From an uncultured Eubacteriales bacterium (GTDB lineage Bacteria > Bacillota > Clostridia > Christensenellales > CAG-917), in NCBI GenBank assembly GCA_900548005.1, contig URIZ01000006.1, positions 7,816-71,815 of the forward strand: DNA of 64,000 nt. Reading direction: 5' to 3'. A program made the position numbers and the translations under genes. Numbering within the stretch: the stretch's first letter is position 1; each line of letters begins with the position of its first letter. A model generated the notes under the pieces. It saw nothing but the letters and a program-made list of their open reading frames with translations, made no database searches and was not told the origin of the DNA. Positions 11,193 to 60,230 of this stretch are shown here, piece by piece.

Positions 11193-11214
11193 GTGGTGGA
11201 GATAAGGGGATTCG
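11192..11214. repeat. tRNA-proximal copy of the 23-bp direct repeat
   Basis: Identical to 10882-10904. Overlaps the tRNA-Ala T-loop through CCA. Confidence 0.95.
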
Positions 11215-11269
11215 AACCCCTGACCTTCGCATTGCGAACGCGACGCTCTACCAACTGAGCCATATCCCC
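11194..11269 (-). tRNA. tRNA-Ala (anticodon CGC), CCA encoded
   Basis: Hand-folded cloverleaf: GGGGAUA UG GCUC AGUUGGUA GAGC G UCGCG UUCGCAA UGCGA AGGUC AGGGG UUCGAAU CCCCU UAUCUCC A CCA. G3:U70 identity pair present. 76 nt. Confidence 0.93.
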
Positions 11270-50715: not shown

Positions 50716-50816
50716 GGTTTCAAACGTTCACCCCTTGTAGAGCCGTGAACAATATGCGCCTTACGGCTGGATGTTTCGACAGGCTCAACATGACGATATG
50801 GAAAATTTGATACAGC

Positions 50817-50866
50817 ACCCGAGCATGCGTAGCGGAGCGTACACGTAGTACGTGAGCAACACACGC
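50817..50866 (+). repeat. 50-bp perfect direct repeat, copy 1 (GTAC-hairpin module)
   Basis: ACCCGAGCATGCGTAGCGGAGCGTACACGTAGTACGTGAGCAACACACGC, identical to 51175-51224. Confidence 0.95.
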
Positions 50867-50870
50867 ACAG

Positions 50871-51035
50871 CCGGAACAAAAGCCGTCATCGCGGCAACGG
50901 CATCGCTTGCTTACAAGCAACGCCGAAAGCCGTATTAGGCTTGTTGTTCTGCTAACCGCGCCGAAAATCTTTGCTATCAGTTTAGTTACGGACAAAAACT
51001 TCTGCCGCAATTTCGCAAGATTGTCGGCTTGGTGT
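50871..51035 (+). repeat. 165-nt repeat module, copy 1
   Basis: It aligns by eye end-to-end with the reverse complement of 58391-58551. Differences are scattered substitutions and one 3-nt indel. Confidence 0.9.
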
Positions 51036-51174
51036 TTAGATTGGGTGGGACACCCACAAATGCGTCCCTTGCCGAAAAGCAAACGGCAAGAGCCAAGGAA
51101 GACGAGAACGAGTAGCGGAATGTACTTTGTACCAAGAGATAATCAGACACAGAGCAAGCGGCGAAAGTCAAGGA

Positions 51175-51224
51175 ACCCGAGCATGCGTAGCGGAGCGTAC
51201 ACGTAGTACGTGAGCAACACACGC
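51175..51224 (+). repeat. 50-bp perfect direct repeat, copy 2
   Basis: Identical to 50817-50866. The two copies start 358 bp apart. Confidence 0.95.
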
Positions 51225-51238
51225 GCAGGGTGACGAAG

Positions 51239-57355: not shown

Positions 57356-58063
57356 TTATTTTTTGTTTTTCTTTTTTGCGTCGAAGGCGGCGATTTCTTT
57401 GTTGAAGTCGATCTCGGTGAGCTTGCCTTTGTTGGCAAGATAGCAATGCTTGCCAAGCGCAAAGATGTATCTGTCGTGATCAAGACTGTCGCTAAATACG
57501 TTCTCAACTTCCACATCGGGCAAAATCTCGTTCAATCTGCGCACCTTCTCTTCTTTGCGACACACTTTGCCAAGCAAGTGTCCGTTGTCCTTGCTGTGCG
57601 GACTTGCGATGCAATAGTCGATCTTCATGCGCCTTGCGATCTCTTCGATGAGAAAATCGGGGCTTGCGCTGATAAGCACGGTTTTTCTTGACGGATCGCG
57701 ATTTTCGGGCTTGAAAAAGTCATAAATATCCTTTTCATGCTTGTCCCAATACTTCTTCACCGTCTTCTCGGTGTTGACGAGCTTGACAAAATTGAACGCG
57801 ATTTTCTTGAAGATAGGCACGGGCAAAATCTTTGTGACCATCAAAAAGCCCCAAAAAAGTTGGAACGGCAAAAGAATCAACGTCCACGGACAATGCAACA
57901 TGCTCCAATACCAATAATGGAGCGCGCTGTCGTACGGGATTGCCGTTTTGTCGAAATCATAAATGTCAACCGTGATTTTTTCACCATTTTCCATAGTGTA
58001 TATTGTATCAAACTTTTCAACGCAATACAAGAGCGAAAAATCAAAACTTGAAAAATGCATCAC
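57356..58063 (-). CDS. HAD-superfamily hydrolase (HAD-IB-like)
   Basis: DFDKT motif I (DIYDFDKTAIPY), ISASP motif II and the downstream SDSLDHD. The start is uncertain: GTG 58063 in the track, or ATG 57992-57994 (MENGEKITVDIYDFDKT). Confidence 0.75.
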   Translation of the reverse strand: MMHFSSFDFSLLYCVEKFDTIYTMENGEKITVDIYDFDKTAIPYDSALHYWYWSMLHCPWTLILLPFQLFWGFLMVTKILPVPIFKKIAFNFVKLVNTEKTVKKYWDKHEKDIYDFFKPENRDPSRKTVLISASPDFLIEEIARRMKIDYCIASPHSKDNGHLLGKVCRKEEKVRRLNEILPDVEVENVFSDSLDHDRYIFALGKHCYLANKGKLTEIDFNKEIAAFDAKKKNKK

Positions 58064-58390
58064 CGCCGCAAAATTTGTATCTTAAACCACAAACCCGACA
58101 TAAGTAAACATTGTCGAAACATTCGGGTGTGGGTGTCCCACCCTATCTGTCATGTTGTCAATACAAAGCGGAGCAACTTGCTTGCAAGGGTTGCGTAGCG
58201 TATGTATTCACGTAGCAACGCCTTTGAAAAAGGCGAAACCGCAGGTTTCTATGCGCAAGCATAGCAGTTGCGAGTAGCCTGCCGAAACATCCAGCCGTAA
58301 GGCGCATATCTTGCTTTTTCTTTTCGCTACGCTAGATTCTTCGATTCTCTCAGAATGACAAGGAAAAATTTAGAATTTCACCGCTTAAAA

Positions 58391-58551
58391 ATACCAAGCC
58401 GACAATCTCGCGAAATTGAGGCAGGAGTTTTTGTCCGTGTCTGAACTGTCAAAGATTTTCGGCGCGGTTAGCAGAACAACAAGCCTAATGCGGCTCTCGG
58501 CGTTGCTTGCAAGCAAGCTATGCCGTTGCCGCAATGACGGCTTTTGTTCGG
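58391..58551 (-). repeat. 165-nt repeat module, copy 2 (inverted relative to 50871-51035)
   Basis: Its reverse complement aligns with 50871-51035. Confidence 0.9.
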
Positions 58552-58560
58552 AACAAGAAA

Positions 58561-58621
58561 GGCACGGCTTGAAACAAAACCCAACGTACATTTAGTACGT
58601 GATTTTGGAGCAAGCCGTGCC
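58561..58621. repeat. GTAC-hairpin module H-b
   Basis: 11-bp closing stem GGCACGGCTTG/CAAGCCGTGCC. Apical ACGTAC-ATTTA-GTACGT. It is preceded on the plus strand by GAACAAGAAA. Confidence 0.8.
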
Positions 58622-58682
58622 TGACAAAGTTATTCGCAGTTTGGTGTATAAACGAGCGCGATATTTAGATGAAGAACAAGAA

Positions 58683-58745
58683 AGAGCCACGCTAACGGCA
58701 ACCCTAATGTACACATAGTACATGAGTTGACGGGAGCGTGGCTCT
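58683..58745. repeat. GTAC-hairpin module H-a
   Basis: 11-bp closing stem AGAGCCACGCT/AGCGTGGCTCT. Apical ATGTAC-ACATA-GTACAT. It is preceded on the plus strand by GAACAAGAAA. Confidence 0.8.
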
Positions 58746-58775
58746 GCCGCAGTCATTCGCTAAATAGCGCGCTCG

Positions 58776-60230
58776 TTAGTCGCGCTCGTGAGCAACGTTG
58801 AAATCCTCATAATAATTCAATGGCACGCAATCAAACGTATTGTCTTTCTTCAACTCGATGCGGGTGCAACCGCGTTGAGAGTGCTTTTTGAAGATGCCGG
58901 GATAGGCGAGATAGTCAACGGACATGCCGTAGGTAAGACGGATTGAACGGTCTGCTCCTGCGGGCGTGTAGTTGACGGAGAAGTTGTTGTAGTGGTCGTG
59001 ACCGCAGAACACGCCTTGCATGCCGTGGGTGAGGCCCGTTTCAAACAACTCGTCGGATCTGCTGCCGCAGAAGACGCCGTAGGTGCGAACGCCGTTCTTT
59101 TTCTTGTCGGTCTCGCCCATTTTGCCGTAGATAAACTCGGTCTTGCCGCGCTCTGTTTCAACGGTTTTGCCTTTGGTCATGGTTTCGCCGCTGTCGATGA
59201 CGTTTGCCCAAGCGTTGCGGTACTCTTCAAGCGGAATGTGGAAGAATGCAATGTTGTTGACGGTGTTATTGTTGTTGTGGTCTTTGGACAATCTTTCGAT
59301 CTCGGTTGCGTACCAATCGATTTGGCATTGGTGGATGTTGTCATACTTCCACGCCATTCCGAAATAGTCGCCGTCCGTGTAGCTGTGGCTGTCGAAGGTC
59401 ACAACCGTTTGATTGATAGAGCCGTCGCTGTTCTTGACCACGATCATGTCGTTGCCAAAGCCGCGAGCGTCATTGCCGATGTAGTCCTTCTTGTCGCAGA
59501 AACCGCGGCGGAAAAGGCAATACTTGAAACCTGCATTCTCATAGTAATCGCAGATTTCGTCACGGGAGTAGAGGCTGTAAAGCTCGGTGTCGTGGTTGCC
59601 GAACGCAAACGTCCAATATACGCCGAGAGTTTCCATCATGTTGGAGAAGATCTTGGTTGCGTTGAGATTGTTGAACGTACCCGATTGCACAGGCACGGGG
59701 TATGCAATGTCACCGGTGACAACCACAAGGTCGGGTTGCTCTTGTCTGATCATGGTGGCAACCGCGTTCATAGCCCACGCGTCTTTTTGGTGAGTGAAAC
59801 TGCCGCCGCCGATATGTACGTCGGTGAATTGCAAGATCTTGAATTCTCTGCCGTCTTCCTTGGTGAACGTCCAATATCCGTTGCCGCTTTCCTCGGGCTT
59901 TTGGGGCGCGAGTTGCGTGTGAGCGGTGTATTCGACCTTGCTGTAGGAAGTGGCTTGTTGAATAAGACCTTTTGTGCCGACTGCCGTTGCAATTGCGCAG
60001 CCGCTGAAGAAGATCACGATTGCAAGCACAATGCTGCCCGTGATGATGAGAGCTTTTGCCGTGCGTTTTTTCTTTTGTTCGGGAGTGAGTTGCTTTTTGG
60101 CTTTTTTGCCTTTCTTTTGCGCTTTCTTCTCTTCTTGATCGGAAAGGATGCCTTCTTTTTCGAGCGTTTCGTCCGCAGTGGCGGTTTCGTCTTGCTCGGT
60201 GGCGATTTCGTTTTTGATTTCGTCGCTCAT
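58776..60230 (-). CDS. Membrane-anchored metallophosphoesterase (calcineurin-like)
   Basis: 484-aa ORF with a K/E-rich N-terminus, one TM helix, then FTDVHIG, VTGDIAYP, FGNHD and GHDH motifs. Confidence 0.85.
   Translation of the reverse strand: MSDEIKNEIATEQDETATADETLEKEGILSDQEEKKAQKKGKKAKKQLTPEQKKKRTAKALIITGSIVLAIVIFFSGCAIATAVGTKGLIQQATSYSKVEYTAHTQLAPQKPEESGNGYWTFTKEDGREFKILQFTDVHIGGGSFTHQKDAWAMNAVATMIRQEQPDLVVVTGDIAYPVPVQSGTFNNLNATKIFSNMMETLGVYWTFAFGNHDTELYSLYSRDEICDYYENAGFKYCLFRRGFCDKKDYIGNDARGFGNDMIVVKNSDGSINQTVVTFDSHSYTDGDYFGMAWKYDNIHQCQIDWYATEIERLSKDHNNNNTVNNIAFFHIPLEEYRNAWANVIDSGETMTKGKTVETERGKTEFIYGKMGETDKKKNGVRTYGVFCGSRSDELFETGLTHGMQGVFCGHDHYNNFSVNYTPAGADRSIRLTYGMSVDYLAYPGIFKKHSQRGCTRIELKKDNTFDCVPLNYYEDFNVAHERD

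Follow-up and report, generated by a model that had tools for sequence, protein, structure and literature searches.

The metallophosphoesterase gene and the HAD-family gene in a 64-kb stretch of DNA (the window, C6:7816-71815 of genome G000) are separated by a non-coding gap, which proved to be a strain-variable array of interspersed palindromic repeats. The family is undescribed and comes from an uncultured gut lineage of Christensenellales, G000 being a 1.57 Mb metagenome-assembled genome (MAG) of this order with 26 contigs and a completeness of 98.7%. An earlier note, made from the letters of the window, had described a local pair of tandem hairpin modules in this gap; these are instead members of a genome-wide interspersed repeat family, the full unit of which is anchored on stop codons. 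Our preferred interpretation, in which belief and doubt are evenly balanced, is that the units are old, resident, recombining, terminator-like palindromic repeats that were seeded via single-stranded DNA at the replication fork.

The hairpin unit and its family

The two hairpins of the earlier note, H-a and H-b, were both found as it had drawn them. In H-a, AGAGCCACGCT (58683-58693) pairs with AGCGTGGCTCT (58735-58745), the inner stem is CAAC/GTTG and the apex is ATGTAC-ACATA-GTACAT; in H-b, GGCACGGCTTG (58561-58571) pairs with CAAGCCGTGCC (58611-58621), the inner stem is CAAAA/TTTTG and the apex is ACGTAC-ATTTA-GTACGT. Both are flanked on the 5' side by GAACAAGAAA, which is the reverse complement of a conserved 3'-arm motif, TTTCTTGTTC(TTCATC). 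The 63-nt module proposed for H-a was too short, however: H-a (58683-58745) is the core of a 127-nt unit (unit 1, Table 1) with three more covarying outer helices and an upstream stop codon.

In the mRNA sense unit 1 consists of S1 CGAGCGCG, S2 CTATTTAG, S3 CGAATGAC, a TGCGGCA spacer, S4 GAGCCACGCT, S5 CCCGTCAACTC and the apex ATGTAC-TATGT-GTACAT, followed by the 3' arm with the conserved TTTCTTGTTCTTCATC. Its folding energy is -64.5 kcal/mol on the gene strand and -65.9 kcal/mol on the opposite strand (z = -8.9 as RNA and -8.2 as DNA). Unit 2, which contains H-b, has a 5' arm made of S2 CCAAACTG and S3 CGAATAAC, then S4 GGCACGGCTTG and the apex ACGTAC-TAAAT-GTACGT. Its 3' arm ends after TTTCTTGTTC, with S2' and S1' missing, and the cut falls between TTTCTTGTTC and CGAACAAAAG, the latter being the start of a 161-nt block (M4, see below).

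Read in the sense of the host gene, the general order is stop codon, S1, S2, S3, TGCGTCA, S4, S5, apex and a 3' arm with TTTCTTGTTCTTCATC. S1 is variable, S2 occurs in variants that include CTATTTAG, CTAAATAG, CTATTGAG and CCAAACGG, and S3 is CGAATAAC or one of its variants, with a pyrimidine-pyrimidine mismatch in every one. S4 has 9-11 bp and many variants, and the apex follows RYGTAC-N5-GTACRY. Besides the mismatch in S3, the unpaired motifs GCGAATAAC, TGCGTCA and TTTCTTGTTCTTCATC are conserved. The palindrome runs the full length of the unit, which amounts to terminal inverted repeats, typically TAAAA...TTTTA. T-rich tails follow the stems of the units; terminator-like tails numbered 6 against 1.3 expected, 5 of them on the strand of the host gene.

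The genome contains 122 GTAC-N3-7-GTAC sites, where about 28 would be expected, and 87 of them share the complete hairpin architecture. A covariance model (R1) built from an alignment of 41 units recovered approximately 88 loci, with scores near 135 bits in the sense orientation and near 52 bits in antisense. BLAST of the gap against the genome gave hundreds of partial copies; in a comparison of the genome with itself, 3.3% of bases had three or more other copies and each position from 58121 to 58782 had 7-47. There are 138 repeat regions in the genome, with differing combinations of modules, and a window-wide repeat search found a third locus at 16.5-16.8 kb. Convergent gaps make up 36% of the repeat regions against a background of 18%. 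This pattern far exceeds chance. Pairwise identity between the units of the genome has a median of 60% and a maximum of 92.8%, so that none reaches 97%, and stem variants and segments reassort freely among units. There has been no recent burst of unit copies.

As 32 of the 52 contig ends of G000 lie in these repeats, the family is a main cause of fragmented assemblies in the lineage. Most short-read strain assemblies break 40-330 nt past the phosphoesterase stop. Within the order the family is patchy (24 of 151 genomes, in at least 13 taxonomic families), and the relatives identified by the phosphoesterase flank belong to uncultured gut Clostridia that bear the labels Christensenella sp., CAG:475 or CAG:238, among them the closed chromosome CP091723. 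A search of the window against Rfam, at gathering and at permissive thresholds, gave one match at gathering, a tRNA at 11197-11269; at E ≤ 10 nothing credible appeared in either of the two repeat loci first recognised.

The alignment of 41 units (28 from G000 and 13 from the orthologous site in other strains or species) has 41 consensus pairs, 36 of which show double changes. Paired cells amount to 95.3%, compared with 68.4% in shuffled alignments, and double-change cells to 451, compared with 141; neither value was reached in any of 500 shuffles, and registers slid along the alignment gave 36-47% pairing. The covariation of the stems is decisive. The further copies and the covariation that the earlier note had proposed to look for thus both exist, and its view that divergence preserves a structure and not a protein was borne out, the peptide frame not being kept.

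Its argument for a folded RNA did not gain specific support. One-sided changes at the pairs are almost absent, and in the paired columns of 56 units, where 88% of the cells are Watson-Crick, G.T and A.C mismatches are equally frequent (53 and 53). Both strands of unit 1 fold equally well, and the wobbles of M4 are divided evenly between the strands (74 plus, 71 minus). An RNA under selection on one strand would not show equal numbers of G.T and A.C together with a near absence of one-sided changes.

Stop codons and replication

With a simple gene set consisting of long open reading frames (ORFs), 43 of the 87 apexes were found 38-74 nt past a stop codon in sense orientation, against 4 in antisense, and the distances peak at 44-49 and 56-61 nt. 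Most of the remaining apexes lie approximately 127 nt further out and belong to second or third tandem units. The distance from stop to apex is 61 nt for unit 1 and 184 nt for unit 2, which places the latter in the second tandem position. In 18 of 25 anchored units the whole stop codon pairs with the distal arm, and pairing reaches a mean of 1.67 nt into the host gene (0.53 in the null). TAA is the stop of 22 of these 25 genes (88%), compared with 49% genome-wide. The proposal that the end of the host gene writes the outer stem holds in part: of all layers of the unit S1 is bound most closely to its site, and it reaches into coding bases above chance, but identical S1 variants, TAA or TGA included, are also present in units that follow no gene. 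In unit 1, S1 CGAGCGCG is a direct copy of the last codons of the host gene, 4 nt upstream. Units whose 5' arm has a stop codon in every frame are weakly enriched (17/56 vs 7/56 when shuffled), and this was not used as evidence.

Where the orthologous site downstream of the phosphoesterase gene carries no element, it is a gap of 115-135 nt with an ordinary short terminator (as in L005, L020 and L025-27, with L164 a further case). In the species that have the element, the unit starts at the phosphoesterase stop and its stems differ from species to species, some orthologous units having a compensated apex such as ATTTAC...GTAAAT or ATGTAT...ATACAT. The units take the place of the ordinary short intrinsic terminator of element-free relatives and probably serve as exchangeable transcription terminators. 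At positions ~1-130 of contig C18 of G000 an S1-like outer stem (TAAAAATCAACGC...GCGTTGATTTTTA) surrounds an ordinary small terminator, GGCACGCA-GGAA-TGCGTGCC, with no unit core; this could be an empty frame or an ancestral state.

The host genes of the anchored units in G000 lie on the G-rich strand, as defined by GC skew, in 34 of 36 cases, compared with 67% of all genes. On the closed chromosome CP091723 the polarity is nearly absolute: 84 of 85 units (60 of 61 loci) fit a single switch between 741 and 797 kb, every unit below 741 kb being on the minus strand and all but one of those above 797 kb on the plus strand (p ~5e-7 per locus against a null of 75%). The exception is a unit anchored on dut, convergent with guaA, at ~797.99 kb. 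As dnaA is close to the switch, at 833 kb, the switch corresponds to the origin region and the sense strand of the units to leading-strand sequence, i.e. to the lagging-strand template. The dnaA gene (~832.5-833.0 kb) is itself on the minus strand, ~36-90 kb to the right of the switch, which may reflect an inversion close to the origin or, in this assembly, a dnaA gene that is not next to the origin. That the choice of host gene tracks the direction of replication points to a single-strand process at the DNA level behind at least some of the constraint. The known precedent for such a strand bias is single-strand transposition at the fork (PMC5027513, PMC6006769).

These observations bear on two explanations other than the preferred one. 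The first is that the hairpin and M4 are functional structured RNAs, such as 3'-UTR elements, processed small RNAs, RNase III substrates or protein-binding platforms, with the stop codon in the stem coupling translation termination to folding. In E. coli, REP elements near stop codons have been reported to affect translation. A structured RNA would account for the fixed sense orientation relative to the host gene, the stop codon within the basal stem, the strong covariation, the conservation of unpaired motifs on one strand, and the covariance-model scores, which are far higher for the sense strand than for the antisense. It is nevertheless distinctly unlikely: the equality of G.T and A.C, the scarcity of one-sided changes, the equal folding of the two strands and the lack of an Rfam match are all at odds with it, the near-absolute polarity has no rationale at the RNA level, and the wholesale replacement of units between strains with identical proteins (see below) runs counter to a gene-specific regulatory role.

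The second explanation regards the units as functionless and without dedicated mobility, left behind by errors that replication makes at palindromes (template switching, quasi-palindrome correction, inverted-repeat expansion) and spread only by recombination and drift. Double changes without wobble intermediates would be expected of such errors, as would polarisation by replication, deletions across hairpins flanked by short direct repeats, a distal arm that mirrors the last bases of the host gene above chance, and the copy of the gene's own last codons in S1 of unit 1. Palindrome correction, however, would erase the asymmetric internal loops, the pyrimidine-pyrimidine mismatch and the long unpaired motifs, which are kept in all copies and across families of the order. 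The presence of the same complex 127-nt architecture at ~60 gene ends requires a copying mechanism, and the conservation of occupancy between species suggests retention. This explanation is therefore considered improbable.

Turnover, mobilisation and accessory modules

The comparison of strains suggested in the earlier note showed that strains with identical flanking proteins carry different units. Two alleles exist among the contigs that encode the identical 484-aa phosphoesterase: identity is 98-98.5% in the flanks but only 72% in the unit on the TAA, and different modules follow the stop-anchored unit. One strain (L090) has an H-a-type unit in second place, with its 5' arm degraded. Strains with identical GuaA have the guaA-dut gap in at least four allelic forms: in one a different unit is on the stop and the usual unit is displaced and half deleted, and in another an extra hairpin is on the dut stop with near-repeats on its flanks. 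The groEL site has two strain alleles. Deletions across hairpins are bounded by short direct repeats, and the alternative strain alleles have no near-identical donor unit in G000. In the convergent gaps (the L098/L106 guaA-dut alleles, and ~797.99 kb of CP091723) a unit is possible on the stop codon of each gene; in one L098/L106 allele two anchored units share a core, giving a symmetric hairpin with both arms of the 5'-arm type.

Between G000 and CP091723, 55 of 60 arrays begin at the stop of an ORF, and 42 of 53 orthologous genes are occupied in both (approximately 47 if variant apexes are inspected), where chance would give 2-3. The orthologous units are mutual best matches at only 12 of the 42 sites; at the rest the best match, with 78-95% identity, is a unit behind a different gene. 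The same ~60 gene ends are occupied in different species, with the resident sequence shuffled. Inspection indicated that cores (S3 to S3', often with S2) travel between sites and that S1 more often stays, which implies exchange by way of the conserved spacers. Strains of a single species have different units on a given stop codon because nested segments exchange between sites and tandem units are lost by deletion across hairpins. The strain alleles suggest, but do not prove, insertion of new units at the stop codon, as differential loss from longer ancestral arrays explains them too.

A mobilising enzyme was sought by family. PF01797 (Y1 HUH/RAYT/TnpA) had no match in G000 or in the element-rich genomes G040, G132, G038, G025 and G084, and some genomes with few or no elements do have it. 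G000 lacks Y1/RAYT, IS110 and reverse transcriptase, and none of them tracks the element across 18 genomes. All three tyrosine recombinases of G000 scored 39-80 bits with the integron integrase model TIGR02249, against a cut-off of 265; they are Xer-type or phage-type, and are uninformative in any case because such recombinases are ubiquitous. No ORF-bearing repeat or full-length insertion sequence (IS) was found in G000, where the longest repeats are non-coding arrays of 450-615 nt, although a MAG may miss IS copies. Viral contigs contained no units: a 16-mer scan gave chance matches without a model match, and a two-arm pattern gave none. As to target-site duplication, TAA-type units have a TA on either side and TGA-type units do not, so that a TA duplication would fit the former alone; no consistent duplication emerged, and the strain comparison yielded no clean pair of an empty and a filled site.

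It could be supposed that the units are active non-autonomous transposons like MITEs (a MITE is a miniature inverted-repeat transposable element), mobilised by a transposase from a phage, a plasmid or unbinned DNA, with new copies pushing older ones outward from the stop. Different units on the same stop next to an identical GuaA, GroEL or phosphoesterase would be the natural outcome, and so would the two cases in which the unit of the other allele is second with a degraded 5' arm, the unit lineages behind different genes in two species (up to 95% identity), the patchy distribution in the order and the AAAA...TTTT termini, which are those of the pneumococcal SPRITE repeat (PMC3049150). Against it, identity between units peaks at 92.8%, the alternative alleles lack a near-identical donor, and 42-47 of 53 sites are common to two species. 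The want of a consistent target-site duplication, of the tested transposase families, of an ORF-bearing repeat and of units in viral contigs speaks against it as well, and the tendency of S1 to stay with its site fits conversion better than insertion. Active MITE-like transposition thus appears unlikely.

An integron-like system, in which the units would be attC-like single-strand recombination sites and the intervening modules non-coding cassettes, is largely refuted by the absence of an integron integrase and has very little probability left. Each site is indeed unique in sequence with a conserved structure, the best-conserved paired triplet (AAC...GTT) adjoins an unpaired spacer, and the arrays are ordered from proximal-new to distal-old. 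However, there are no ORF cassettes, the sites are ~60 dispersed loci and not one array, and the AAC/GTT helix is internal to the hairpin and not basal.

In the preferred interpretation, of resident repeats seeded through single-stranded DNA, a strand-specific process on the single-stranded lagging-strand template would have seeded the family, by hairpin-dependent integration or by template switching. Afterwards the units would have stayed resident, diversifying by gene conversion and unequal recombination. The succession of A-tract, long hairpin and U-tract, transcribed with the upstream gene, would act as the terminator of that gene and as a protective hairpin at the 3' end of its mRNA, and M4, M3, M2 and M1, which are further repeat families, would gather distal to the hairpin units in the same tolerated 3' space.

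Several points weigh against this interpretation. Transcription of the units and their terminator activity are predicted; with 55 bp the stem is far longer than that of a normal terminator, and the U-tract that follows S1' is short (TTTAT here). The search of G000 for an enzyme that could drive a single-strand mechanism came up empty, although a MAG can miss mobile genes. The leading-strand bias could in part be a preference for highly expressed genes. The strain events are unpolarised, so that units may have been gained at the stop codon or lost differentially from ancestral arrays that were longer, and the exact placement of the first unit on the stop codon is left unexplained. A bolder proposal, which we regard as doubtful, is that the 127-nt unit is an undescribed class of mobile DNA: a folded single strand would integrate at the fork precisely on the stops of leading-strand genes, or supply those stops, via an enzyme outside the Y1, IS110, reverse transcriptase and IntI families, and the host would have adopted the units as interchangeable terminators, with new hairpins being fitted continually to a fixed set of gene ends.

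Approximately 3% of a small gut-bacterial genome consists of these repeats, in a lineage that is common in the human gut but uncultured. If the units are the terminators of ~60 genes, they constitute a natural system of exchangeable 3'-end parts, and if they were seeded by a single-strand mechanism, an enzyme awaits discovery. Being hypervariable between strains with identical proteins, they are also ready markers for strain typing.

The features of the gap are collected in Table 1. As the HAD-family gene begins at the Met codon at 57994, which gives a protein of 212 aa in other assemblies, the gap measures 781 nt. The longest HAD ORF of the window (57356-58063, 235 aa, with a GTG start at 58063) is not the real gene. 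The ORF list held no convincing ORF in 58064-58775. Strain alleles regain identity at CGACAATGTTTACTTATGTCGGG, upstream of the HAD-family gene.

Table 1 Features of the gap and its phosphoesterase flank in window coordinates (matches prefixed C6 are in contig coordinates; a dot marks features without an assigned strand)
Feature	Position	Strand	Basis and remarks
Metallophosphoesterase gene	58776-60230	-	ORF list; product 484 aa
Metallophosphoesterase TAA stop	58776-58778	-	Inside basal stem (S1) of unit 1; AA of UAA paired in fold
Hairpin unit 1, full length (127 nt)	58651-58777	-	R1 covariance model match C6:66466-66592; 134.8 bits minus vs 49.9 plus
Hairpin unit 2 (contains H-b, 58561-58621)	58551-58644	-	R1 match C6:66365-66448, model positions 22-105; 75.4 bits
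M4 (161/165-nt block)	58389-58551	.	24 near-full and 21 partial genome copies; two long helical domains
M3 (holds GCC-GTAA-GGC)	58276-58388	.	15 near-full and 24 partial copies; weakly structured
M2 (holds CGCCTTT-GAA-AAAGGCG and CTATGC-GCAA-GCATAG)	58148-58278	.	7 copies, 92-98% identity
M1 (small hairpin GGGTGTGGGTGTCCCACCC and flank)	58120-58157	.	Pile-ups of alignment ends; copies at 51040-51058 and elsewhere
Unique DNA upstream of HAD-family gene	57995-58119	-	Self-BLAST coverage 0; strain comparison

The boundaries of the accessory modules M1-M4 were set by pile-ups of the ends of alignments (high-scoring segment pairs). M4 is the block that the earlier note had recognised, correctly, as an inverted copy of 50874-51037, with 90-95% identity. 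In the mRNA sense it opens with CGAACAAAAGCCGTCA, resembling S3 and the spacer of a unit, and it has 38 pairs valid on both strands, at least 7 of them with double changes. A protein-coding reading of M4, based on the peptide shared by the two copies, was ruled out, its frame being broken by stops and frameshifts in many copies and a conserved start being absent. The ~240-nt stretch next to it, which the note had called absent from the other locus, consists of two interspersed modules and is partly present there, as the 34-nt piece 58276-58309 of M3 is found inverted at 50752-50785. M3 has no pair with two or more Watson-Crick types. The three small hairpins listed for M2 and M3 in Table 1 were all found as noted, but the case built on their GNRA loops for the plus strand rests on M2, a module whose copies are too alike to give any information on covariation. 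M1 marks the distal end of the array and comes after unit 1 in the alternative strain allele.

Further observations concern the joining of modules. M4, or a module resembling it, can itself adjoin a stop codon (TAA-ATCC-AACAAAAGCCGTCAT...), as at C17 ~18048 and C7 ~43770 of G000, and at the latter site the stop codon varies between species together with its neighbour, being TGA if a hairpin unit follows and TAA if the other module does. At C11 ~27266 of G000, compared with L143, a unit is cut exactly after the conserved TCGTCAG spacer and joined to a module of the type seen at 16.6 kb and 50.4 kb. Module junctions recur at conserved unpaired motifs (between AG and CGA, after GTCA and after CATC). 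In the sister locus of the window the inverted M4 copy is flanked by two divergent hairpins that are 98% identical (50817-50870 and 51175-51228); they have a GCGTAC-ACGTA-GTACGT apex and different arms, and lie off stop codons.

Comparison with known systems

Membership of the RAYT-associated, IS200/IS605, integron or classical MITE classes fails on defining features. Of a classical MITE the units have the terminal inverted repeats but neither a parent IS nor near-identical copies. Correia (NEMIS) elements of Neisseria and ERIC/IRU elements of Enterobacteriaceae are, like the units, imperfect palindromes over their whole length of 100-150 nt, present in tens to hundreds of copies and co-transcribed with neighbouring genes, as the units here would be. 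Both affect mRNA ends. They differ from the units in their high copy-to-copy identity and in not being locked to stop codons or to the direction of replication, and Correia elements have a clear TA duplication.

The closest described systems are SPRITE/BOX/RUP, REP/BIME and IS200/IS605 derivatives. With IS200/IS605 the units share hairpin-defined ends, the lack of a consistent target duplication, a position directly 3' of a short motif and a strong bias to the lagging-strand template (PMC5027513), which here amounts to 34/36 and 84/85. They differ in that there is no TnpA, no full-length IS and no recent identical copy, and in that the unit is one long hairpin, whereas IS200/IS605 elements have two different subterminal hairpins. 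The REP/BIME/REPIN repeats of Enterobacteria and Pseudomonas are likewise extragenic palindromes at gene 3' ends, in mosaic arrays with fixed positions and strain-variable content, with a presumed single-strand hairpin substrate and a strand-specific biology (PMC6006769). REPs, however, are 20-40 nt long with a conserved GTAG foot, which the 127-nt units lack, and REP/REPIN pairs with a RAYT (Y1 HUH), of which there is none in G000 or the other element-rich genomes.

The SPRITE, BOX and RUP repeats of Streptococcus pneumoniae (Croucher et al. 2011, PMC3049150) parallel the arrays of units and M1-M4 in several features. The termini of SPRITE are AAAA...TTTT, and a U-rich tract comes after its long duplex; it is enriched near the 3' ends of coding sequences and between convergent genes, has no known target duplication and, as has been suggested, may have been co-opted as a terminator. 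BOX is built of modules (boxA-boxB(n)-boxC), the number of which varies between strains, and the three cluster and insert into one another (PMC3049150). The stem with its T-rich tail and the enrichment at 3' ends of coding sequences and in convergent gaps are SPRITE-like, and the composite modules are BOX-like, an analogy of organisation that does not imply homology to boxA, boxB or boxC. The likeness to SPRITE is one of description and not of sequence comparison; its duplex has 18 bp, whereas the 127-nt unit has five independently covarying helices. Unlike these pneumococcal repeats, the units have the stop codon in the basal stem, are always in the sense orientation and are, copy by copy, unique combinations of stem variants; their leading-strand share is 84/85, compared with ~61-63% (PMC3049150). 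Set beside REP, BOX, SPRITE, Correia and ERIC, the family is new in its combination of a stop codon in the stem, near-absolute co-orientation with replication, conserved occupancy with swapped sequence and no recognisable transposase, features that have not been reported together.

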